This document shows positions 6,666 through 19,849 of a stretch of 64,000 nt of DNA, in pieces. The stretch covers positions 34,978-98,977 of the forward strand of contig JAPLGO010000001.1 of the NCBI GenBank assembly GCA_026390115.1, in the 5' to 3' direction. Origin of the DNA: Campylobacterales bacterium. Lineage in GTDB: Bacteria > Campylobacterota > Campylobacteria > Campylobacterales > Sulfurimonadaceae. How positions within the stretch are numbered: position 1 is the stretch's first letter; every line of letters begins with the position of its first letter. Under the pieces are notes generated by a model, which saw nothing but the letters and a program-made list of their open reading frames with translations, searched no databases and was not told the origin of the DNA. The translations under genes and the position numbers were made by a program.

Positions 6666-8465
6666 TCAAAATTCCTTAGATTCTGCATTTTTGACAAATC
6701 TGCTTGCCATTTCACCCGTTTGTATAACAATCTCATTTACTTCTCGCGCATTATCCGCATTTTTTTGTGTTGTTTTTTCCAGTTCTGAAATCGTATCATT
6801 TACATTTGAAACTGCTTTTGACTGCTCATGCATGGTGCCGCTTACTTCATTTATAGATCCAACCATAACATTTACCGTGGCAGATATTTTACTTAAACTT
6901 TGTTGCGTTTTCTCCGCCAGATTTCTGACTTCATCCGCAACAACGGCAAAGCCCCTGCCATGTTCACCTGCTCTAGCTGCTTCTATTGCAGCATTCAGAG
7001 CAAGAAGATTTGTTTGATCAGCTATATCACTAATAATGCTTGTAACCGACTTAATATCTTCAGATTGTCCAACAACAGTGTGTGTTTTTACCACTATCTC
7101 ATTTATCGCCATAGTAATAGACTCCATGACTCTTGAAGTATCTTTTAATTTCAGAGCCTGCTCTTGTGCCGAGGCAGTAAGAGAAAACATATTTTTCGAT
7201 AGTTTGCCCGATTGCTGCTCAAGACTGTGACCATCTTGCAGTTCTTGTTTGCTCGCACTTGCCAATGATCCTCCAAGGCTGTTTGTGCTCTCGAATAATT
7301 CTTTGATTCTGCCTGTTGTGTCGGTAATATTCACAGTAGGTTTAAAATTGTCATTTTCATAGCTTTTTAAAACTTCCAACACTTTTTTGATATTTTCATT
7401 CATGGCATCGAGCATAGAATTTACAATCTCTCTTAATCTGTTGAGTGATTCGCTATTTGCATGCACTACAACTCTCTCCGTCATATCCCCTTTTGCAGTT
7501 TTCTCAGCCACATTTGATAAATTCTCAATCAGCTTGTTATCCTGAGCAACTCCATCTTCCATATTTTTTATGTATTTATTAAACTCATGCGCTATATCTT
7601 TTATTTCGTCATTCTCTAGAATATCTATTCTTGAGCCTTTTTTCTCATTAAGATTTTTAATTCCCTCTAATAAAATTTGAAGTTTGCTTTTAAATTTTAT
7701 AGAAATCAGAACCGATATAACAATAATTATAAACGCAATAGATAAAAGTGTTATTGTGAAATTTCGCATATTGTCTTTAATCTGGTCACGCATCTTTTTA
7801 TTTGAGATACTCACTCCGATATACCCTGAAGTGCCGCCCTCTTTCCAGTTTGTATGGCAAGATATACACTCTTTTTCGGCAATAATTTGCTGATAAAATG
7901 TAGAAGTGTCACTCTCCTCATCTATCTTATAGGCTCGGTTGTCGCTAAATTTTAAATCCCTATCAATCTCAAAGTGGCAGGTTCTGCACTCTTTTGTTTT
8001 ATCCATAAGTACGCTTCCGTGAAAACCCGCAGATTTTTCAAGCGGTGTATAGCTCCAATCAGCCCTGAGAAACATTCCATTTGTTTTTTCATATATCTCT
8101 TTATTGGGATTGAAATATTTATTATCTTTATGCACAAAAGGCTTGCCGACTGTAACTTCTTTTGACTTATAATTCATGAGTCCTGAAGAAGCATATAAAA
8201 CTGTCTCTTTTACCCCGTCTAAAAGAGCTATATTGTCCATAGCGGCTTGAAACGTTTTTCGTTGACCTCTTGCAAGAGAATCTTTTGAAGAGACGACATA
8301 ATTATGTAAAATAGCCGACCCTTTATCTTCTATCATCTCTTCAAGTTTTGATTTTTGAAGATAATAGTTAACCGTTATAGAGATAATCGATATGACTACA
8401 ACACCAAAAACCAAAGGAAAGGAGAGCTTAAATAAAATAGATTCTGTAAAGTTTCTTTTTTGCAT
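6666..8465 (-). CDS. Methyl-accepting chemotaxis protein with a periplasmic di-haem c sensor domain
   Basis: TM1 (~aa 11-35), CRTCH and CISCH motifs, TM2, HAMP-like segments, signalling core [40 protein letters not shown]. Confidence 0.9.
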
Positions 8466-8468
8466 TTT

Positions 8469-9413
8469 TCATCCCTCAATATTGCAGTTTTTAAATTTAA
8501 CAATGGCTCTTTTATCATCGTATGTGTGCAACATTATCTGTCTTGGGAAGTGTTCGCTTGCACATCCGATACAAGGGTGTCCTGCTTTTATACATGTATT
8601 TGTGTTATTATTGTGTCCAATTTCCATACAATCATTTTTGGTTACGGGTCCTTGACACCCTAATTTAAGCATACATCCCGATTCACCTATTTTTTTAGAG
8701 TAGTTTTTCTCTTGAAATTGAGAATAGTACATACATCTCTCATGTACTGTTTGAGAATAAAATCTAAGCGGTCTTCCCTCTGCATCGAGTTCGGGAATAG
8801 TTTGAAATTTTGCATAGTGAAAAATAACATAAATGAGATGCTCAGGTTTCATAGGACAGTTTGGCAGAGCTATTACCGGCTTATTTAACTTTCTGTCTTT
8901 TACAAAACTGCCAAGAGACATGACTCCGGTATCCATGCCCTGCATTCCCGTAATTCCGCCGAATACGGCACATGTTCCGGCAGCCACGCATGCAGAGGCA
9001 CTTGCCGTCATTTGCTCCATCCAATCCATGATTGGTCTATCTCCCATCATACAGGCATGCGGCATTGCTACGGGAATAGAACCCTCAACAACCAAAAGAT
9101 AGTTATTTTTCAACTCTTTGGAGGCTTTGTCAAGCAGATCCACAACTTGCTTTCCCGTTGCAAGAGAGACATCCGGATGATAGACCATATTTGTATATCT
9201 CGTAAGAATATCAAGCACGGAGACATCTTCTATGTTTAAAAAGGAGCATGAGCATCCGGAACATGAAGAGCCATGGAGCCAAATTAGATTTGGCTTAATC
9301 ATTTTTCCCTCTTCCATCGCAAGCAAATCTTCATAACTGAAAAAATTTGCAGCCCCAACTGCTACCAATACCTTTAACATCTGTTTAATGGCATCTCTTC
9401 TTGATAAACTCAT
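8469..9413 (-). CDS. [NiFe]-hydrogenase small subunit with Tat signal (group 1a-like)
   Basis: MSLSRRDAIK twin-Arg signal; CSGC, EGS, GTC, NCP, HERC, GCMLKLGCQGP, HPCIGC Fe-S ligands. Start moved to ATG 9413 behind AGGAG. Confidence 0.9.
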   Translation of the reverse strand: MSLSRRDAIKQMLKVLVAVGAANFFSYEDLLAMEEGKMIKPNLIWLHGSSCSGCSCSFLNIEDVSVLDILTRYTNMVYHPDVSLATGKQVVDLLDKASKELKNNYLLVVEGSIPVAMPHACMMGDRPIMDWMEQMTASASACVAAGTCAVFGGITGMQGMDTGVMSLGSFVKDRKLNKPVIALPNCPMKPEHLIYVIFHYAKFQTIPELDAEGRPLRFYSQTVHERCMYYSQFQEKNYSKKIGESGCMLKLGCQGPVTKNDCMEIGHNNNTNTCIKAGHPCIGCASEHFPRQIMLHTYDDKRAIVKFKNCNIEG

Positions 9414-9423
9414 CTCTTGCTCC

Positions 9424-10977
9424 TTAATGAACTGAACATGCAAGGCATGGATCTGTTGATCTTACTATTCTTGCCAACTCAATTGGATTATTCAGGTCTT
9501 TTATCCTTGTACCGATAAGCATTTTTTCAACAACACCTGGGGTTCCTTTTGCGTCTTTTGGCGAAATATTCCATGTTGTGGGAACAATCATGTCATAGTT
9601 TTTAATCAATCCGTTTTCGTCAGTCTCTATCCAGTGTGCCAAAGCTCCTCTTGTCGCCTCGGTCAACCCGAAGCCGACAGCATTCTTCGGAACATCCCTC
9701 TCTACAAAAGCAAGCTCGTTAGGAGCAACTTTTTCTATATCTTCAAGAATCTTATCAATAATGATGCTCGAAGCAATGGCACGGCAGAGATGTCTTCCAA
9801 GAACAGAGTTATACTCTTTAAATGTAAGATTCAACTTAGCGTTAATCGAATCGACAAGCGCATTTAACTTCTTATTTTTACCGCTTTTGTAAGTATTTAT
9901 AACCCTAGCAACCGGACCTACTTCCATAATCTCACCTTTATAACGCGGAGCTTTTGACCAGCTGTATTTTCCATTCTCTTTCTTCTGTTCTTCTTTAAAC
10001 TCATCATAATTTATCGGTGTAAGTTTTGTAGAATCAAGAGGCTTTACATTGGAGTCGGGAGTGCTTTTATAGTAGGAGTATTTGTGATCTTCAAAAATAT
10101 GTTTCAAATCAAGTGCTTCATACTCATCATCTATCGTTGCACCGCCTACAAAAAGGTGATTTTCCCCATTTTCATCTGGCAGATAGGGGTAAGAGAGGTA
10201 GTTTCCATATCCTGCTCCCATTTTAAAGTATTCCGGAAACTCTTTTGCTACAGCGATAATATCATTTATATAACTGTTTTTTATAAAGGTTTTAGCTCTC
10301 ATGACTAAAGATCTGTATTTTGCAAGTTTCTCAACTGTTGGTATCGTGGTAACTCCACCGGCTTCAATTGTAACGGAGTGAGGAGCTTTTGCACCGAAAA
10401 CGGCGACCGCTTTGGTTAAATCAGCCATAACTTTAATGGATTCAAGATAGTTTTTAATCGCAGTGAAATTTGTACTCTCTGATTTTGCATACACCGCTTC
10501 GTATCGCGGCAGGAATGGGGCTGCAGGAAATATTTTATTGCTTTTGAGCTCATTTTGAACCCAACTTTTTACACTAAGTGTACTCTCATCGTCTCCGTTA
10601 TACTTTAAAACGGCAGTTATATCTATAAAATCAAGCGCGCTTAAAACATAAAAATGAAGAAGGTGATCCTGAAGTTGATACGCACCGACAATCATATTTC
10701 TTAGAAGCTGTCCGTTGTGGTTAGGTTTGATTCCCATTGCATTTTCCAGTGCGAGAGAGGCTGCCTCGGCATGAGCATAGGGACAAACTCCGCAGACCCT
10801 CTGTGTTACTTGCTGTGCAACTCTGGCATCATAACCGATAAGTGCCTTTTCTATTCCTCTGAACATCTCTGCAGAGCATTTCGCCTCTGTTACAACCCCG
10901 TCTTCTACTTTTGTCTCAACTTTAAGATGTCCCTCAATTCTTGTAAGCGGATCAATAGTAATTTTTTGTACTGCCAT
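9424..10977 (-). CDS. [NiFe]-hydrogenase large subunit (group 1a-like), no C-terminal extension
   Basis: IDPLTRIEGH, L1 QRVCGVC, L2 DPCLACSVH followed directly by TAA. Confidence 0.93.
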   Translation of the reverse strand: MAVQKITIDPLTRIEGHLKVETKVEDGVVTEAKCSAEMFRGIEKALIGYDARVAQQVTQRVCGVCPYAHAEAASLALENAMGIKPNHNGQLLRNMIVGAYQLQDHLLHFYVLSALDFIDITAVLKYNGDDESTLSVKSWVQNELKSNKIFPAAPFLPRYEAVYAKSESTNFTAIKNYLESIKVMADLTKAVAVFGAKAPHSVTIEAGGVTTIPTVEKLAKYRSLVMRAKTFIKNSYINDIIAVAKEFPEYFKMGAGYGNYLSYPYLPDENGENHLFVGGATIDDEYEALDLKHIFEDHKYSYYKSTPDSNVKPLDSTKLTPINYDEFKEEQKKENGKYSWSKAPRYKGEIMEVGPVARVINTYKSGKNKKLNALVDSINAKLNLTFKEYNSVLGRHLCRAIASSIIIDKILEDIEKVAPNELAFVERDVPKNAVGFGLTEATRGALAHWIETDENGLIKNYDMIVPTTWNISPKDAKGTPGVVEKMLIGTRIKDLNNPIELARIVRSTDPCLACSVH

Positions 10978-11081: not shown

Positions 11082-12110
11082 TTACTTATCCAAATAAGTC
11101 TTTTTATATAAATCAGGCAAGAAACATTTTCGGCACATCGGGATTTTGTAGTAATCACCCTTGGCATGTGCATCTCTTATCTCTCTATATTTCGGTGAAT
11201 TCCAGATGTCTATAAGTTTTTGCTCTTTCCAGTTTCCGACGATATACTCATCCGAATCATCCACACAGCAAACCGTAACATTCCCGTTGCATTTTAAGAA
11301 CATTCTCTGAAAGAGCTGCTCGCATGCAAAACCTTCAACCGGCTCATACTCATGTCTTTTATTTGGATTTCTTTCGTTAAATATACCATATCCAAGCGAG
11401 TCAACAAGCCCTTCCCACATCACTTTCATAGCATCAAACTGACGGCGCCATATTGGGTCGTCATACATAACCATGGAGAGGCGGATATGCGTTTTTGGGT
11501 AGAACGTATCGCGAAGTTTTATAAACTCATAAATATTGTCTATGACCACCCCGATGGTCGTTCCGACGCGTTGTTGCGCATAGAGTTTAGGATTGACTGC
11601 ATCAAAAGAGATAAAAAGTTTATCCAGACCTGCTTCAAGGAGTTTGAGTGATAGATCGGGCGTAAGCAGTACGGCATTTGTGTTAAACATCACATCAAGT
11701 ACCCCTTTTTGCTTCGCATATTCCACTTGAAATGCAACATCTTTATGAAGAAGCGGCTCTCCCAGATATTGAAGTTTTATAGCCTTTACGCCATGCTCCA
11801 CCGCTTGGTCGATGATATTCATATAGGCTTCTCTGTCTATGTAACGGCTTTTTGCCACATGATGCTCTTTATCCGCATCCTTCATGGTTCTCGCACACAT
11901 CGGACATTTGAGGTTGCAGAGGTCTGTTGTCTCAATATCTAAGTTAAGAGGAAAGTGGGAGACGAATCTCTCTTTCGGATATTTACTCCAGTTTGCTCTG
12001 TACTCGGCATACTCCTCACCCTTAAAACTCTCCCAATTTTTTGAGAAGACTATTTCATTAGCGTTATAGTTTACCTCTTCCTCTTTTTTTTCTATGTGTT
12101 GTCCTGACAT
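11082..12110 (-). CDS. Radical SAM / SPASM-twitch domain protein
   Basis: CNLKCPMC, GEPLLH, C-terminal CEQ...CCVD...CRKC. Confidence 0.85.
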   Translation of the reverse strand: MSGQHIEKKEEEVNYNANEIVFSKNWESFKGEEYAEYRANWSKYPKERFVSHFPLNLDIETTDLCNLKCPMCARTMKDADKEHHVAKSRYIDREAYMNIIDQAVEHGVKAIKLQYLGEPLLHKDVAFQVEYAKQKGVLDVMFNTNAVLLTPDLSLKLLEAGLDKLFISFDAVNPKLYAQQRVGTTIGVVIDNIYEFIKLRDTFYPKTHIRLSMVMYDDPIWRRQFDAMKVMWEGLVDSLGYGIFNERNPNKRHEYEPVEGFACEQLFQRMFLKCNGNVTVCCVDDSDEYIVGNWKEQKLIDIWNSPKYREIRDAHAKGDYYKIPMCRKCFLPDLYKKTYLDK

Positions 12111-12812
12111 CTATAAATCCTTTTGTTTTAAAAGTGCTTCAGCTATTATAAAATCTAACTTTGTATCTATATCGGCAGAATGCTCTTGGCTCATAACATA
12201 AGCGTAAATATCCTGCTTTATGAAAAAACTCTTCTTCTCTATGACAGAATCTATCTTTGACATGTAAAAAGCGCCGTTTATTCTGTAGTAAACCGGTAAA
12301 TCCTGAGAGCGGAAATTGTTGTATTTATCGTCCAAAAAGTTATCCATGCTTAAGCTCTCATCCAGCGTGTTACTCCAGAGCGGAGAGTGTTCTACCTCGC
12401 AAACACCTATGACCGATGTCGCATTTTTGGCGTAAAAGAACTCAATAGCCCCGTCAATGTCATCCACATCTCTCAGCGGCGAAGTGGGCTGAAAGATAAT
12501 CACATCATCAAACTTTTCATCTTTATAAAAATCAAGTGCATGAAGGATTACATCTATGGATTTTGTCTCATCCTGTGCCAGTTCCGCAGGCCGCAAAAAC
12601 GGCAGTTCTGCGCCATGTTTTAAAGCCACATCATAAATCTCCAAAGAGTCGGTCGTAACCATTACGGTGTCTATGTATTTGGACTTCTTCGCCTCGTCGA
12701 TGCTCCATGCAATCAGAGGCTTTCCGCCGAGAGGAAGTATATTTTTATTAGGCAATCTTTTGCTACCGCCGCGAGCCAAAATAATCGCTAAAATTTTTTT
12801 GCCGTTAAACAT
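12111..12812 (-). CDS. neuA: CMP-nonulosonic acid synthetase (acylneuraminate cytidylyltransferase)
   Basis: ILARGGSKRLPNKN, FQPTSPLR, DIDT motifs. Confidence 0.9.
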   Translation of the reverse strand: MFNGKKILAIILARGGSKRLPNKNILPLGGKPLIAWSIDEAKKSKYIDTVMVTTDSLEIYDVALKHGAELPFLRPAELAQDETKSIDVILHALDFYKDEKFDDVIIFQPTSPLRDVDDIDGAIEFFYAKNATSVIGVCEVEHSPLWSNTLDESLSMDNFLDDKYNNFRSQDLPVYYRINGAFYMSKIDSVIEKKSFFIKQDIYAYVMSQEHSADIDTKLDFIIAEALLKQKDL

Positions 12813-13648
12813 TAATCTTCTCCATATAATAGGCAGTTTTTGCAGAGATGGTTATCAGGAAATTCACTCTTTGCATGCATCTCTCTAACAGCTGCAAACT
12901 CTTTGGAATTATAAATATCTAAAAAATCATGCTTTATCAAAGAACCGAAATTTATCGAATCAAAATAATCCTTGCAGCATAGCCCTAGCGTTCCGTCTGA
13001 ATTGATGTAGAGTTCATCAAAAGGAATTTTACATTTTTTTGTTACCGCTTTTTGGGAAGTTACTTCAAACTTAGGAGTATATCCCAAAGCGTAAACGGAG
13101 ACGCCGTTTACAAGTGCGAAGTTTGCACCGAAAATTGCTTCGAACTGTTTTATCAAAATCTCTTTGTCGATGTCAATGACGGAAGAGATAAAAATTCTTA
13201 AGTTTGGATATTTCTCAGATTTGAGCTGCAATAAATCTTTGAAATTTTGTATGACAATATCAAAATCATCTACCAAATGAACGCTTTTATAGGTTAATGC
13301 ATCGAGAGCATTGATAGAAAATTTGATGCTGTCAATTCCTGCTTCTAAGAGTTCTATTGCCTTCTTTTTGGTAAGCAGCGCACCGTTCGTACTAAAATAT
13401 ACATAGGGAATATTGAACTCTTTTTTGGATGATTCTACAATCTTAGCAAACTCTCTATTTACAAGCACTTCGCCCTTCGCCGAGAGTCCAAGTTCGGTTA
13501 TTTCTACATGTCGGGCAACATTCGTCATAACTTTTTTAAAATCTTCTAAAGTCGTCTGCTCTTTTATGGTTCGGGGATCTGAGTTTGAACAGAATGTACA
13601 CTTGTGATTGCAAAATGTACAGATGTCAAAATTTACTTTTTTTTTCAC
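12812..13648 (-). CDS. Radical SAM / SPASM-twitch domain protein
   Basis: CNHKCTFC near the N-terminus; C-terminal CKIP...CCKD...CKNC; GTG start. Confidence 0.8.
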   Translation of the reverse strand: MKKKVNFDICTFCNHKCTFCSNSDPRTIKEQTTLEDFKKVMTNVARHVEITELGLSAKGEVLVNREFAKIVESSKKEFNIPYVYFSTNGALLTKKKAIELLEAGIDSIKFSINALDALTYKSVHLVDDFDIVIQNFKDLLQLKSEKYPNLRIFISSVIDIDKEILIKQFEAIFGANFALVNGVSVYALGYTPKFEVTSQKAVTKKCKIPFDELYINSDGTLGLCCKDYFDSINFGSLIKHDFLDIYNSKEFAAVREMHAKSEFPDNHLCKNCLLYGED

Positions 13649-14766: not shown

Positions 14767-14784
14767 AAGGTATGCTTTTTGCTT
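14767..14784 (+). promoter_or_regulatory. Candidate sigma54 promoter for the second maf
   Basis: AAGGTATGCTTTTTGCTT has GG-N10-GC spacing, ~30 nt upstream of GTG 14814. Confidence 0.4.
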
Positions 14785-14813
14785 CAACAGAACAACTAAA
14801 TAGAGGGTATTGC

Positions 14814-16841
14814 GTGGAAAATATTGAGCTAAAAGCTATAGAAACCTATAATAAAAATTTGCTATTTCTAGAAGATATTGACCCAAGGCTATGTGAAAAA
14901 ATTTACGCATTAGCCTATGCCATAGAACAAGGATATTATCAAGAAAAATATTCACTGGAGTACAAAGATGAATATTTTGATGTTTTGGAACCTGCAACCG
15001 GCAACTGGCTATATGGTGCAAACAGTAAAACGCATGCAGAGATGGCAGCCAAAAGTATAAACTATTCAAAAACAGAAAATGTATATGAGACTTTCGCGGA
15101 TGTCAATATAGATGATGTTTATGCCAAAGAACTTGAGGAGATGGATATTTCCCAGAGTAGCTACTCCGGTGCAGCAGGGCTTATAAACTATTCAAACAAG
15201 CATGCGGATAAAGAAAAAACTTCTATGAAAAAGCTTTATAAGTTTATCTTCATAGGTGTCGGTCTTGGTCTACATCTGACTACGATACATGAAAAGCTGA
15301 ACTCTAATATCTATTTTATCGTAGAGGATGATTTGGAGCTTTTTAGACTCTCCCTCTTTGTCACGGATTATCAAGCACTTACACAAAATGGTGCCATGCT
15401 TATTTTTTCTATTTTCGACGAGGAGGATGCTTTTAGAAATGCTACCAACCTCTTCTTAAAAGAGCATTTTATCTACAATCACTACATTAAATTTTTCTAT
15501 CTTCTCAGCCACAAAGAAAAAAAGTTAAGAGCTATTCAGAACATTATCGTGGGGCAGAATTATCTTACTTTCAACTATTCGGCGCTCAGCAATAGTCTTT
15601 TGAGACCGCTTGTACATCTAAAAAACGGCTATAAACTTTTGGATATCAGCGCATCCTACAAGGATAGTATCTTCACAGATAAACCATTTTTACTTTTAGG
15701 TGCCGGACCATCCTTTGGAAAAAATATAAAGTGGCTATGTGAAAATCACCATAAGTTTATAATTGTCGCCGTCACTCCTCTCCTCGCAAAGTTAGAAGAA
15801 TTAAACATCAGACCGGACATCATAACGCATGTACATGGCTTTGCTGATGCATTGCCCCATGTGCAGAAAGTAAAAAACATCTCATTTTTTGATAAAACTA
15901 TCTGCATCTTCGGCGGTTTTACATCTCCTGATTTTATAAAATATTTCAAAAAGGAGAATGTCTTTGTTTTTGAAGGAAGCTCAAGATATAAGCGATGGGA
16001 CACAGGTTTAACCTCCTCAAATATCGGTTCTATCTCTTATGGTCTGCTTCTTATGCTGCAGACAAAAGAAATTTATCTGCTAGGTCTTGATTTTGCTCCC
16101 GACCAAGAGAGTGGCAGTACACATTCATTAACACATAATTATGTTAGAAATATAGAGTTACAGGAAGATGAAACTATCGGAGGCGGGCTTGTTTTTAATA
16201 GTGCTATCGTAAAAACAAAAGGCAATTTTCGAGATGAAGTGTTTACAACTCTTATGTTTAATGACTGGAAAGAGGAGTGTAATGCTGTAGCAAGAAGTTA
16301 CAAAACTGAGAAGAATGAACATGTATATAACCTGAGCGACGGTGCTTATATAGATGAAACTATCGTACTGAAGCCCGATGAAACTCAAATCACATCTTTA
16401 GCTCTTTTAGATAAAGAGAGTGCAAACAGCGAACTCCTCTCTATTTTAAACTCCAAGGCTGAAAATTTTTTAAATCCTGTTGAGCTGCATAATATTAGAC
16501 TAAGAATTAAGTATTGTGACAATATTATAGATATTCTCAACAGACATGCAAACAGCAATCATCAAAATATCAACCAATACCATTACAATCTCTTAGGTGT
16601 ATTTTATAATATTTTAACTGATGAGGGACAGGTTGAGAGCTCCGACATAAACCGTGCTATTACCCTCTATCTGCAATTTGTTTCAGGATTTATATTTGAC
16701 CTTATCAATACAAAAGAGATAGTAAATGAAGAGATACTTATCAAGCATTTAGATAAAGTTATTATTCCTCAGATTATAAGAGTTATAGTATATTTTAAAG
16801 TTAATTTGAAAGATTATTTAAGTTTTGTAGCAGAAAAGTAG
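14814..16841 (+). CDS. maf: Second motility-associated factor (Maf, DUF115)
   Basis: LLLGAGPSFG and GLDFAPD; colinear with 2120-4162. GTG start chosen behind AGAGGG (ORF track start 14772). Confidence 0.8.
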   Translation: MENIELKAIETYNKNLLFLEDIDPRLCEKIYALAYAIEQGYYQEKYSLEYKDEYFDVLEPATGNWLYGANSKTHAEMAAKSINYSKTENVYETFADVNIDDVYAKELEEMDISQSSYSGAAGLINYSNKHADKEKTSMKKLYKFIFIGVGLGLHLTTIHEKLNSNIYFIVEDDLELFRLSLFVTDYQALTQNGAMLIFSIFDEEDAFRNATNLFLKEHFIYNHYIKFFYLLSHKEKKLRAIQNIIVGQNYLTFNYSALSNSLLRPLVHLKNGYKLLDISASYKDSIFTDKPFLLLGAGPSFGKNIKWLCENHHKFIIVAVTPLLAKLEELNIRPDIITHVHGFADALPHVQKVKNISFFDKTICIFGGFTSPDFIKYFKKENVFVFEGSSRYKRWDTGLTSSNIGSISYGLLLMLQTKEIYLLGLDFAPDQESGSTHSLTHNYVRNIELQEDETIGGGLVFNSAIVKTKGNFRDEVFTTLMFNDWKEECNAVARSYKTEKNEHVYNLSDGAYIDETIVLKPDETQITSLALLDKESANSELLSILNSKAENFLNPVELHNIRLRIKYCDNIIDILNRHANSNHQNINQYHYNLLGVFYNILTDEGQVESSDINRAITLYLQFVSGFIFDLINTKEIVNEEILIKHLDKVIIPQIIRVIVYFKVNLKDYLSFVAEK

Positions 16842-16968
16842 ATTGCTTTGCTTTCACCTCTGAAACGAAGGCAGCCATCACCTCCAAACACTATTACAAA
16901 ATGTTTGGTTACGGTTCTCATGGCAAAGAACCGATGTGGGGCAATCTTAGTTATGTAAGAAGTTTATA

Positions 16969-17787
16969 TTATTGGAGCAGCTTGAGAACATTCTGCTGAA
17001 CGGCATTCGCCTGACTCATAGCATAAGAGCCTGATTGTGCAAGAATATTATGTTTTGCAAAGCTTGCACTCTCTTCTGCAAAGTCAACATCCCTGATATT
17101 TGATTCTGCGGCTGAAACATTCACTTGAGTGATTGATATATTTCTCACGGTTGACTCTAGTTGGTTTTGTGCAGCACCCAGTGTTGCTCTTAATCCATCC
17201 ACTGCTTTGAGTGAACTGTCCATCATAGATATAATGGTTGCAGAACTAGCCTGAGTTGAAAAAGTAGCTAATTGATTTGCAAATAAAGATGTAGTTTTCA
17301 TACTACTTACTGTTGTAATAGTAGTATCACCTCTATATGCGCCAACTTGAAATGTATATGTTCCTGTAGTGCTTAAGAGTGGTTTGCCATTGAATTTGGT
17401 TTCAGAAGCAATGTGATTTAACTCACTTTGAAGTCTTATCATCTCTTTGGATATATAACTGCGAGAGCCACTATCTTGGGTATCATTGGCACCTTGAATT
17501 GCAAGAGTACGAATTCTTTGCAAGATATTTCCATACTCCTGCAGCGCTCCATCGGCCGTTTGAATCATACCAATACCATCATTTGCATTTTTTATGGCTT
17601 GACCTAAGCCGTTGGCTTGTGCGGAGAGTTTATTTGCAATTGCCAAACCTGCCGAATCATCAGCCGCTTTATTTATTCTTAGACCTGAGCTTAATGCATT
17701 AAGACTTTTATCCAGTCCGACATTATTCATCGTAGCTTGCATGTGTGCATTCATCGCACCCACATTTGTATTTATTCTAAATCCCAT
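16969..17787 (-). CDS. Short flagellin, sigma54-type (FlaB-like)
   Basis: [43 protein letters not shown]; 272 aa. Confidence 0.95.
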   Translation of the reverse strand: MGFRINTNVGAMNAHMQATMNNVGLDKSLNALSSGLRINKAADDSAGLAIANKLSAQANGLGQAIKNANDGIGMIQTADGALQEYGNILQRIRTLAIQGANDTQDSGSRSYISKEMIRLQSELNHIASETKFNGKPLLSTTGTYTFQVGAYRGDTTITTVSSMKTTSLFANQLATFSTQASSATIISMMDSSLKAVDGLRATLGAAQNQLESTVRNISITQVNVSAAESNIRDVDFAEESASFAKHNILAQSGSYAMSQANAVQQNVLKLLQ

Positions 17788-17822
17788 AACAGATTCCTTA
17801 CGATTGACTATTTGTAAAACTA

Positions 17823-17839
17823 AAGCAAATAGTGTTCCA
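17823..17839 (-). promoter_or_regulatory. Sigma54 promoter of flagellin 16969-17787
   Basis: Minus strand TGGAACACTATTTGCTT: GG-N10-GC, Campylobacterota TGGAAC...TTGCTT type. Confidence 0.8.
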
Positions 17840-17872
17840 GAATTAAAAATGAAGGTTATTTAAAGGAAGGAA

Positions 17873-17899
17873 ATGCCAAAAGAATTTACTCTTTGGCAT
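17873..17899 (-). terminator. Probable intrinsic terminator downstream of the middle flagellin
   Basis: ATGCCAAAAGA-ATTTAC-TCTTTGGCAT stem with one bulge; similar to the hairpin at 18974-19004. Confidence 0.5.
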
Positions 17900-18044
17900 C
17901 TATATTGTATTCTGAGTTAAATTCAGAATTAAGAAACTAAAAAATGTGCTTGCTAATTCGAACCTCTAACGACTGTTATTACTGTAACAATCTTAACACA
18001 TTTTCTAAAGAAACATGCTTGCAACCAAGGCTGCTTTATTTAGA

Positions 18045-18859
18045 CTACTGAAGTAGTCTAAGCACGTTTTGCTGAACAGCATTCGCCTGACTCATGGCAT
18101 AAGAGCCTGATTGTGCAAGAATATTATGTTTTGCAAAGTTTGCTGATTCAGCTGCGAAATCAACATCTCTGATATTTGATTCTGCAGCTGCCACATTCAC
18201 TTGTGTTACAGAAATATTTCTAACTATTCAAGTTGGTTTTGAGCAGCACCTAAAGTCGCTCTGAGTGTATCCGTTACTTTAATAGCACTATCCATCATAG
18301 ATATAATAGTTGAAGCACTTGCCTGAGCAGTTAACCCGGCAATTTGATTTGCAAATAAAGTTGCTGTTTTCATACCGCTTATCGCGACCGTAGTTGTATC
18401 CCCTTTATAAGCACCTACTTGGAAAGTATAAGTTGTTGTAGCACTTAGAAGTTGCTTACCGTTGAATTTTGTCTCAGAAGCGATATGGTTAAGCTCACTT
18501 TGAAGTCTTAGCATCTCTTTACCGATAAAAGAACGGGAAGAGCTGTCTTGAGTATCATTGGCACCTTGAACGGCAAGAGTACGAACTCTTTGTAAGATAT
18601 TGCTATATTCTGCCAACGCTCCATCAACCGTTTGAACCATACCTATACCATCATTCGCATTTTTAATTGCCTGACCTAGTCCTTGTGATTGAGAAGAGAG
18701 TTTATCCGCAATTGCCAAACCTGCTGAATCATCAGCCGCTTTATTTATTCTTAGACCCGAGCTTAATGCATTAAGACTTTTATCGAGCCCGATGTTGTTC
18801 ATTGTAGCTTGCATGTGTGCATTCATTGCACCAACATTTGTATTTATTCTAAATCCCAT
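18045..18859 (-). pseudogene. Flagellin frameshifted by a 4-nt deletion
   Basis: ORF stops at 18224 (GAA TAG TTA GAA) where the paralogue has GAA TCA ACA ATT AGA. The conserved C-terminus continues in another frame to TAG at 18045. Total length 815 = 819 - 4 nt. Confidence 0.85.
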
Positions 18860-18931
18860 TTTAAATCCTTTTCGGGTAAGAGCCTTTCGCCCTCTTTAAT
18901 TTTGTTCAGCTTCCTTGCTGATACATCAATT

Positions 18932-18958
18932 ATATCGTCAGCTAAAAAAATAACTTTA
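18932..18958 (-). promoter_or_regulatory. Sigma28 promoter of the middle flagellin
   Basis: Minus strand TAAA-N15-GACGATAT. Confidence 0.7.
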
Positions 18959-18973
18959 ACCATTGTAACGAAA

Positions 18974-19004
18974 AAATGCCAAAGAGAGAATATCTTTGGC
19001 ATTT
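18974..19004 (-). terminator. Intrinsic terminator of flagellin 19031-19849
   Basis: Perfect 12-bp stem AAATGCCAAAGA/TCTTTGGCATTT, 7-nt loop, T-run on the minus strand. Confidence 0.75.
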
Positions 19005-19030
19005 GGAAATTAAAAATCTTTTACACTACT

Positions 19031-19849
19031 CTATTGAAGCAATCTTAATACATTCTGCTGAACAGCATTCGCCTGACTCATGGCATAAGAGCCTGATTGT
19101 GCAAGAATATTATATTTTGCAAAGTTTGCTGATTCAGCTGCGAAATCAACATCTCTGATATTTGATTCTGCAGCTGCCACATTCACTTGTGTTACAGAAA
19201 TATTTCTAATTGTTGATTCAAGTTGGTTTTGAGCAGCACCTAAAGTCGCTCTGAGTGTATCCGTTGTTTTAATAGCACTATCCATCATAGATACAATAGT
19301 TGCAGCACTTGCCTGTGAAGAAAGAGTTGTAATTTGATTTGCCAATAAAGAAGCTGTTAACATACCGCTAATTGCAGCCGTAGTTGTATCCCCTTTATAT
19401 GCACCGACTTGGAAAGTAAAAGTTGTCGTAGCACTTAGAAGTTGCTTACCGTTGAATTTTGTCTCAGAAGCGATATGGTTAAGCTCACTTTGAAGTCTTA
19501 CCATCTCTTTACCGATAAAAGAACGGGAAGAAGTATCCTGCGTATCATTGGCACCTTGAACGGCAAGCGTACGAACTCTTTGTAAGATATTGCTATATTC
19601 TGCCAATGCTCCATCTGCCGTTTGAATCATGCCAACGCCGTCATTTGCATTTTTAATAGCTTGACCTAAACCCTGAGATTGAGAAGAGAGTTTATTTGCA
19701 ATTGCCAAACCTGCTGAATCATCAGCTGCTTTATTTATTCTTAGACCTGAGCTTAATGCATTAAGACTTTTATCCAGTCCGATGTTGTTCATTGTAGCTT
19801 GCATGTGTGCATTCATTGCACCAACATTTGTGTTTATTCTAAATCCCAT
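19031..19849 (-). CDS. Short flagellin, sigma28-type (FlaA-like)
   Basis: Same flagellin N- and C-terminal motifs; 272 aa. Confidence 0.95.
   Translation of the reverse strand: MGFRINTNVGAMNAHMQATMNNIGLDKSLNALSSGLRINKAADDSAGLAIANKLSSQSQGLGQAIKNANDGVGMIQTADGALAEYSNILQRVRTLAVQGANDTQDTSSRSFIGKEMVRLQSELNHIASETKFNGKQLLSATTTFTFQVGAYKGDTTTAAISGMLTASLLANQITTLSSQASAATIVSMMDSAIKTTDTLRATLGAAQNQLESTIRNISVTQVNVAAAESNIRDVDFAAESANFAKYNILAQSGSYAMSQANAVQQNVLRLLQ

Follow-up and report, generated by a model that had tools for sequence, protein, structure and literature searches.

A stretch of 64,000 nucleotides from a lake Sulfurimonas (GenBank assembly GCA_026390115.1, contig JAPLGO010000001.1, positions 34,978 to 98,977 of the forward strand; hereafter the window, to which coordinates refer unless stated otherwise) carries three abutting minus-strand genes that encode the large subunit of a [NiFe] hydrogenase (10977..9424), its small subunit (9413..8469) and a methyl-accepting chemotaxis protein (MCP; 8465..6666) with two haem-c attachment motifs in its periplasmic domain. 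We consider it probable, at roughly 60%, that this trio is one signalling device, in which a hydrogenase exported by the twin-arginine translocation (Tat) pathway serves as a periplasmic H2 sensor for chemotaxis by reducing the haems of the receptor. With somewhat less assurance, yet still on the favourable side of even, we propose that the trio belongs to an undescribed, modular class of periplasmic H2 receptors. In this class, a tail-less, Tat-exported [NiFe] hydrogenase would reduce a dedicated dihaem PDC domain with MCP, hybrid kinase or GGDEF outputs, in Campylobacterota, Gammaproteobacteria and SAR324. Bacteria would thereby have their first molecular H2 chemoreceptor, and hydrogenase-based sensing of H2 would have originated independently a fourth time, in addition to [NiFe] groups 2b and 2c and [FeFe] group C.

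A first-pass annotation of this DNA had suggested a horizontally acquired hydrogenase repurposed as a low-turnover sensor. The sensor role is now strongly supported by evidence from outside the two hydrogenase genes, namely a dihaem MCP gene that starts 3 bp past the small-subunit stop, and a pairing of enzyme and sensor domain that recurs across phyla and output domains.

A hydrogenase clade paired with a dihaem sensor domain

The gap between the large-subunit stop and the small-subunit start is 10 nt, and because the three genes abut, we read them as a tight operon. All three are under strong purifying selection (dN/dS 0.02-0.08). No gene for cytochrome b, Isp or cytochrome c3 was found in the operon of the window, where the dihaem MCP alone follows the hydrogenase.

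At a cut-off of at least 60% identity the large-subunit family is large; its members have 514-517 amino acids (aa), and its hosts are Sulfurimonas, Arcobacteraceae, Sulfurospirillum, SAR324, Chromatiaceae and other Gammaproteobacteria. Trios in the order large–small–MCP occur in Sulfurimonas (L085, L006, G129, G140 and G192), in GCA_947494995, whose copy falls within the Campylobacterota clade, in three genomes from two further Campylobacterota families, in two Chromatiaceae (one of them Thiocystis violacea) and in SAR324. In each of these trios the receptor carries a pair of CxxCH motifs, near residues 160 and 200. Within one sample of 401 Campylobacterota genomes, the large subunit was present in eight, the sensor domain in eight and both in seven (Fisher p 2e-13 without phylogenetic correction; as the carriers come from just four genera, their shared ancestry inflates this value). 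In the genome G365, the sensor lies at a contig end, and hydrogenase genes may fall beyond it. The pairing of this hydrogenase clade with the sensor domain is kept across phyla and across output modules, MCP as well as hybrid histidine kinase.

The receptor itself (599 aa) is composed of a first transmembrane segment (TM1), the periplasmic dihaem sensor, a second transmembrane segment (TM2), a HAMP-like stretch and an MCP signalling domain (PF00015, E 5e-33) with the conserved hairpin tip. The HAMP-like match was weak and below threshold (E 0.004), and the multihaem-cytochrome hits from Pfam were weak as well. Hydrophobic segments at residues 9-36 and 232-262 enclose a domain of ∼200 aa. In this sensor domain (aa 37-236; 7758..8357, minus strand), the first haem-c attachment motif is CRTCH at aa 160-164 (7974..7988) and the second is CISCH at aa 200-204 (7854..7868). 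The cysteines and histidines of both motifs (C160, C163 and H164; C200, C203 and H204) are invariant in 46 full-length members of the sensor family, as are F72, Y99 and R134. The periplasmic domain stands out in receptors that are variable elsewhere, being better conserved than their cytoplasmic portions.

An AlphaFold model of MCP residues 1-260 (mean pLDDT 84.3, pTM 0.76) predicts a long N-terminal helix, an α/β core of PDC/PAS-like fold and a C-terminal helix that continues into TM2. Foldseek matched this model to the extracellular PAS/PDC domains of WalK, KinD and CitA. The matches to the Geobacter receptor domains GSU0935 and GSU0582 (3B42 and 3B47) were weak (E 0.14-0.49, TM score 0.32-0.42), and the Pfam family of Geobacter haem-c PAS domains gave no match in the MCP at E ≤ 0.01.

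Run against 1.84 billion representatives, a profile of the sensor domain recovered 56 clusters (50% identity) at E ≤ 1e-30, beyond which the matches fell off sharply; a word-index protein search with the same domain reached close relatives only, and the profile was needed for the remote ones. The output domain was an MCP domain in 37 of the 46 full-length members, a histidine kinase in five and GGDEF in three. The hybrid-kinase version lies directly behind a large and a small subunit of the hydrogenase family, with hyp genes flanking. Furthermore, one genome (L093 and G207:C17:63575-66915) combines a complete large–small–dihaem-sensor trio with an orphan dihaem-sensor GGDEF protein elsewhere, and this co-residence suggests that one hydrogenase may serve two transducers.

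The hydrogenase and its place among known groups

The large subunit (517 aa; PF00374 over its full length, E 3.8e-139) keeps the residues of standard enzymes, i.e. RIEGH, CGVC, both cysteine pairs, the conserved Arg and HFY.L.ALD. Its L1 motif RVCGVCPYAH (10771..10800) holds the Ni/Fe-ligating Cys62 and Cys65, and its L2 motif DPCLACSVH (9427..9453) is followed directly by the stop codon, the C-terminus reading R-I-V-R-S-T-D-P-C(TGC)-L-A-C(TGT)-S-V-H-TAA with His517 as the last residue. C62, C65, C511 and C514 are invariant within the family. The NCBIfam model NF033181 matches up to position 495 of 507, and as the match stops 12 positions before the model end, the usual C-terminal processing tail is absent.

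Every family large subunit compared is tail-less. In contrast, comparators from groups 1a, 1b, 1c and 1d, in which such an extension is the rule, continue for 15-18 residues beyond the His, and so do true [NiFeSe] large subunits from Desulfovibrio and Bilophila (n = 4, each gene with one in-frame TGA). The absence of a tail is therefore common to the window enzyme and the large subunit HoxC of the regulatory hydrogenase (RH), and not to the [NiFeSe] enzymes. In an alignment of 18 sequences only the family and HoxC end at the His; in a wider set, two enzymes from outside the family (L009 and L010) do so too. One of these, from a metagenome-assembled genome of Planctomycetaceae (L010, 3660-6346), branches at the tree base; its tail-less large subunit ends in SFDPCTACAVH and precedes a small subunit with a Tat signal.

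For the small subunit, the Shine-Dalgarno sequence AAGGAG overlaps the large-subunit stop TAA, and six bases further on stands ATG-AGT-TTA-TCA-AGA-AGA (MSLSRR); because of this ribosome binding site, we place the start at the ATG at 9413 rather than at the TTG at 9443 of the mechanically called open reading frame. The resulting protein of 314 aa (PF01058 and PF14720, i.e. Oxidored_q6 and NiFe_hyd_SSU_C) has the Tat export motif SRRDAIK (9384..9404) and, signal peptide included, finds its best match in the Protein Data Bank in the [NiFeSe] small subunit 2wpn_A. Its medial-cluster motif TNTCIKAGHPCIGC (8562..8603) has Cys where [3Fe-4S] enzymes have Pro: the first Cys of the motif aligns with a Cys of the D. 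vulgaris [NiFeSe] enzyme (2wpn_A) and with a Pro of A. vinosum 3myr_A. A medial Cys is found in 9/9 family small subunits, in [NiFeSe] enzymes and in HoxB, the RH small subunit, whereas 1b and 1d enzymes have Pro.

This Cys predicts a third [4Fe-4S] cluster, the aligned ligands being four Cys for the proximal, four Cys for the medial and His-Cys3 for the distal cluster. Each family small subunit combines the Tat motif (9/9), the Cys that replaces the Pro, a distal cluster with a His ligand and the absence of a membrane anchor; HoxB has no Tat motif. An O2-tolerant proximal cluster of the 1d type was rejected, as the supernumerary cysteines CxCC and GC are absent, and an extra Cys in SCSGCSCS is not conserved across the family. 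Since the tail-less end, the exchange of Pro for Cys and the gene order are invariant in all family members examined, they are not due to chance.

All that the first-pass annotation had read from the sequence of the enzyme held up: the large subunit ends in DPCLACSVH-stop, the Cys in TNTCIKAGHPCIGC occupies the Pro position, the large-subunit gene comes first, the codon for the residue at the selenocysteine (Sec) position, Cys511, is TGC, and the three motifs it had likened to [NiFeSe] enzymes are present as MSLSRRDAIK, QRVCGVCPYAH and HFYVLSALD. Its statement that both protein traits occur in RH and in [NiFeSe] enzymes stood in part: the medial Cys is indeed common to both and HoxC is tail-less, but the [NiFeSe] enzymes have tails.

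As to the affiliation of the enzyme, the best structural matches were the Desulfovibrio [NiFe] enzymes conventionally placed in group 1b (323 bits), followed by [NiFeSe] enzymes of group 1a (∼310 bits), and then, in descending order, by Allochromatium 3myr (conventionally 1e) and the E. coli Hyd-2 and Hyd-1 types (1c and 1d); mycobacterial Huc (2a) and C. necator Hof 5aa5 (1h) scored lowest. Large-subunit identity was 43% to a Dehalococcoidales enzyme of 1a type, 38-40% to [NiFeSe] enzymes, 38% to Desulfovibrio 1b, 33-35% to 1c and 1d, and 30% to HoxC (2b). The NCBIfam scores remained below the curated cut-offs (NF033181 547/600 bits, NF045518 416/780 and NF045520 223/470).

Two maximum-likelihood trees of large subunits, a quick one of 102 rows and a careful one of 59 rows (LG+C20), both united the window protein and its relatives in a clade with 100/100 support on a stem of ∼1.1 substitutions per site. 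The family lies outside a 100/99 clade of Desulfovibrionaceae enzymes (taken as 1b without a reference anchor), HybC (1c) and HoxG/HyaB (1d); at the base of the tree, it shares an unresolved polytomy with the [NiFeSe] clade and enzymes of the Dehalococcoidia/Firmicutes type. The [NiFeSe] clade joins Actinomycetota/Firmicutes types (94/95), not the family. Likewise, the L1 form CGVCP is common to the family, the [NiFeSe] and the Dehalococcoidia-type enzymes, whereas groups 1b, 1c and 1d have CGVCT.

Judged from these alignments and trees, a fair description of the enzyme would be group 1a-like, though a lineage of its own. The earlier assignment as group 1a-like is borne out in that the family falls outside the 1b/1c/1d clade, but not in the kinship with Desulfovibrionales [NiFeSe] enzymes, since the family is neither nested in that clade nor sister to it and descent from it is unsupported. 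The phylogenetic comparison with ordinary group 1b that the annotation had proposed placed the enzyme outside the clade taken as 1b, and with CGVCP instead of CGVCT and the medial Cys instead of Pro, group 1b was rejected. Group 2b was rejected because of the Tat signal, the RIEGH, CGVC and HFY motifs and the low identity to HoxC. The putative, diguanylate cyclase-linked group 2c has the L2 consensus SFDxCLVCTVH (PMC4853749); it was rejected on account of the STDPCLACSVH found here.

Compared with Desulfovibrio HysAB and other group 1a enzymes, including Cys-type relatives in Dehalococcoidia and Firmicutes, the window enzyme is alike in its Tat signal (HysB has MSLTRRDFVK), the CGVCP form of L1, the all-Cys medial cluster, the lack of a membrane anchor, a haem-c protein as presumed acceptor and a compatible basal position in the tree. 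It differs in having Cys instead of Sec, which true HysA genes encode by their single in-frame TGA, in lacking the 15-18 residues that HysA carries after the His, and in its reversed gene order, an identity of 38-43% and its separate, long-stemmed clade.

Hydrogen sensing weighed against other roles

Put together, these features suggest the following sequence of events. The folded hydrogenase would be exported by Tat and dock on the sensor domain of the receptor; a family-specific C-terminus of the small subunit, FPRQIM.H...D.R, is, speculatively, a candidate docking element. H2 would be oxidised at the Ni-Fe site, and the electrons would reach the two c-haems through the all-[4Fe-4S] chain. 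Once reduced, the haems would alter the PDC domain, and the change would reach the CheA-controlling tip via TM2 and the membrane-proximal linker. Periplasmic oxidants would re-oxidise and thereby reset the receptor, whose output would be H2 relative to oxidant. The missing tail would uncouple maturation of the enzyme from the endopeptidase, as in HoxC.

Several observations weigh against an H2 receptor of this kind. Among the 46 sensor members, no His or Met that could serve as distal haem ligand proved invariant, and that electrons pass from the distal cluster to the haems is proposed solely from synteny and topology. In its catalytic centre and gas channel, the enzyme retains every residue of ordinary uptake enzymes, and the HoxC-type substitutions are all absent, for which reason it could turn over fast and also feed respiration; as for the low turnover assumed earlier, nothing in its sequence would argue for it. 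A canonical HydABC with cytochrome b was not found in the 100%-complete host genome, and because the window enzyme is the only periplasmic hydrogenase there, it could also contribute to respiration. Finally, Sulfurospirillum sp. 1612 (L087, CP140614.1, 3433-9485) has the hydrogenase pair behind genes for a molybdopterin oxidoreductase, a 4Fe-4S subunit and a chaperone, the large-subunit start abutting the chaperone stop, and no dihaem sensor domain was found anywhere in that genome. The enzyme can evidently serve other partners, and in this organism it may be a direct periplasmic electron donor.

The strongest alternative, which we regard as unlikely though serious, is a periplasmic uptake hydrogenase of the ancestral 1a type that serves mainly in energy conservation and feeds a soluble periplasmic cytochrome pool; the dihaem MCP would then be one acceptor among others and act as an energy-taxis receptor that samples the flux. 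The standard active-site and channel residues, the lack of a quinone-linked HydABC and the sensor-free pair beside the molybdoenzyme operon all speak for it. So do Tat export, the closest resemblance being to the periplasmic 1a/1b enzymes, which pass their electrons to a multihaem cytochrome c, and the weak matches of the sensor domain to domains of cytochrome c3, cytochrome c7 and MtrC. However, none of the operons examined contains a gene for cytochrome c3, cytochrome b or another electron carrier, and the clade is nearly always paired with a signalling protein. Moreover, the swapping of output domains (MCP, kinase and GGDEF) is the signature of a sensor input module, and the long stem of the hydrogenase clade indicates a functional shift.

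Less probable again is a receptor for oxidant or redox potential (O2, NO or nitrate-derived species), in which the hydrogenase merely keeps the haems reduced and the behavioural signal is the oxidant, not H2. Chemoreceptors with haem-c PAS/PDC sensor domains are already known, and the predicted fold here is of the same class: Geobacter GSU0582 and GSU0935 and Desulfovibrio DcrA are MCPs with a c-haem on a periplasmic PAS/PDC-type domain, for which oxidant or redox sensing has reportedly been proposed. The window receptor differs from the two Geobacter proteins in having two CxxCH motifs instead of one, with no significant sequence match between them, and to our knowledge neither these receptors nor DcrA are paired with a hydrogenase. 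Sulfurimonas lives at oxic-anoxic interfaces, which would suit an oxidant receptor, as would the HypX-like maturase gene beside the trio in relatives, which suggests operation with O2 present. On the other hand, a dedicated, tightly co-inherited hydrogenase would be an expensive way of poising two haems, and the output would depend on H2 in any case, so that this possibility overlaps with H2 sensing as proposed here.

A further comparison is with the group 2b regulatory hydrogenases, C. necator HoxBC with HoxJ and HupUV with HupT, which are likewise dedicated to a signalling partner. The large subunit of HoxBC also ends at the His, its medial cluster also has Cys for Pro, and a hypX-type gene lies nearby; the absent tail and the predicted all-[4Fe-4S] relay are the two traits that the window enzyme has in common with this cytoplasmic sensor. 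RH is cytoplasmic and lacks a Tat motif, whereas the window enzyme is Tat-exported judging by its motif; the RH small subunit has a C-terminal extension of ∼50 aa that is missing here; and HoxC has RVEGD, CGIC and FF, with a bulky Phe in the gas channel, at sites where the window enzyme is standard, the function of these RH residues being familiar from the RH literature. The RH genes run from small to large subunit, and the RH partner is a soluble PAS histidine kinase rather than a membrane receptor with a dihaem periplasmic domain. Conformational protein–protein signalling as from HoxBC to HoxJ, with haems that are structural or serve a second input, would agree with the tail-less large subunit and the all-Cys medial cluster, but the Tat signal, the missing HoxB extension, the absent HoxC substitutions, the identity of only 30% and the two CxxCH motifs as the most conserved features of the partner make it highly improbable.

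H2 is a major energy source at redox interfaces, and we know of no bacterial receptor for H2 taxis. Full-text searches of the literature, aimed at a link between hydrogenase and chemoreceptor as well as at Sulfurimonas hydrogenases, group 2c and group 1a, brought up no account of a [NiFe] hydrogenase that works with a chemoreceptor, and the only report of taxis to H2 retrieved concerns the archaeon Methanococcus maripaludis (PMC3817446). HydDB recognises as sensory [NiFe] classes the kinase-linked 2b and the putative, cyclase-linked 2c but lists no MCP-linked [NiFe] class, and the sole class proposed to signal via MCPs is [FeFe] group C2, termed 'chemotactic (putative)' (PMC5037454). The latter belongs to an unrelated family, is cytoplasmic, is fused to its own signalling domains and is itself putative. 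What would be new relative to the known hydrogenase-based H2 sensors is location (the periplasm), transducer (the dihaem PDC domain) and output (chemotaxis).

If the H2 receptor proposed here is real, it would explain how motile sulfur and hydrogen oxidisers find H2, and it would provide a defined three-protein system that turns H2 into a haem redox signal. It would also mean that respiratory-type enzymes gave rise to sensor hydrogenases in the periplasm by a few recognisable changes, i.e. loss of the tail, an all-[4Fe-4S] relay, a reversed gene order and a dedicated haem partner. For annotation, the family is a warning that 'group 1' matches in Sulfurimonas, Chromatiaceae and SAR324 need not mean respiratory H2 oxidation.

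Maturation genes, genomic setting and history

The host genome (2.64 Mb) has, on contig C18 and thus away from the trio, one hyp cluster, which includes a HypX-like gene, and a single endopeptidase. HypX-like genes, encoding formyltransferase and enoyl-CoA hydratase domains, lie at C18:50111-51757 in this genome, at 4736-6391 in L085 and at 5113-6798 in L090; in L090 the gene is just upstream of the hydrogenase, and in L085 hypA intervenes. This proximity is a hint that the enzyme matures under oxic conditions.

In four other Sulfurimonas genomes the trio stands directly downstream of hypE-hypX-hypA (hypA was not seen in G140), and where the downstream flank could be read (G117/L006 and L085), it stands upstream of rplU. 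The corresponding slot between hypA and rplU in the host genome (C18:52098-53807) is 1.7 kb long, has 28% G+C and contains small open reading frames resembling RelB/RelE toxin–antitoxin genes. Here, and in the closest relative G192 (97% identical), the trio is instead located within a flagellin-glycosylation island. Within this lineage the trio has been relocated from the hypA-rplU site into a motility locus.

The module is rare and patchily distributed: it occurs in 6 of 201 genomes of the bacterial family, all of one genus, and in 8 of 401 genomes of the phylum. All Campylobacterota copies form one clade (95/95), so that old presence followed by loss, or transfer within the phylum, fits as well as import. 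The horizontal acquisition assumed at first is in this respect unsupported as a recent import from another phylum. No plasmid record above 35% identity was found. The locus is not a compositional anomaly either, as its G+C content of 38-40% equals that of the remainder of the window. A scan of the locus for promoters and terminators gave the same counts as shuffled sequences and was uninformative.

The trio is flanked by flagellin genes and flagellin-glycosylation genes, namely maf paralogues, radical-SAM/SPASM genes and a CMP-sugar synthetase gene. Two of the radical-SAM/SPASM genes flank the CMP-sugar synthetase gene (11082-13648 and 14772-19849), and the surroundings of the trio also contain maf paralogues and flagellin genes in tandem; G192 has the same arrangement with four flagellin copies.

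The other large subunits of the genome belong to a group-4-like membrane complex and to a cytoplasmic-looking enzyme with a fused small subunit. In the latter, the second hydrogenase of the genome (C18:267371-269800; L004:5372-7801), the small subunit is fused in frame to an N-terminal NirB-like FAD/NAD(P) oxidoreductase of ∼450 aa; the fusion junction has no twin-arginine motif, and the proximal-cluster motif is altered to SDCSGNSE. Its large subunit of 556 aa is tailed, and group-4-like membrane subunits follow the fusion gene.

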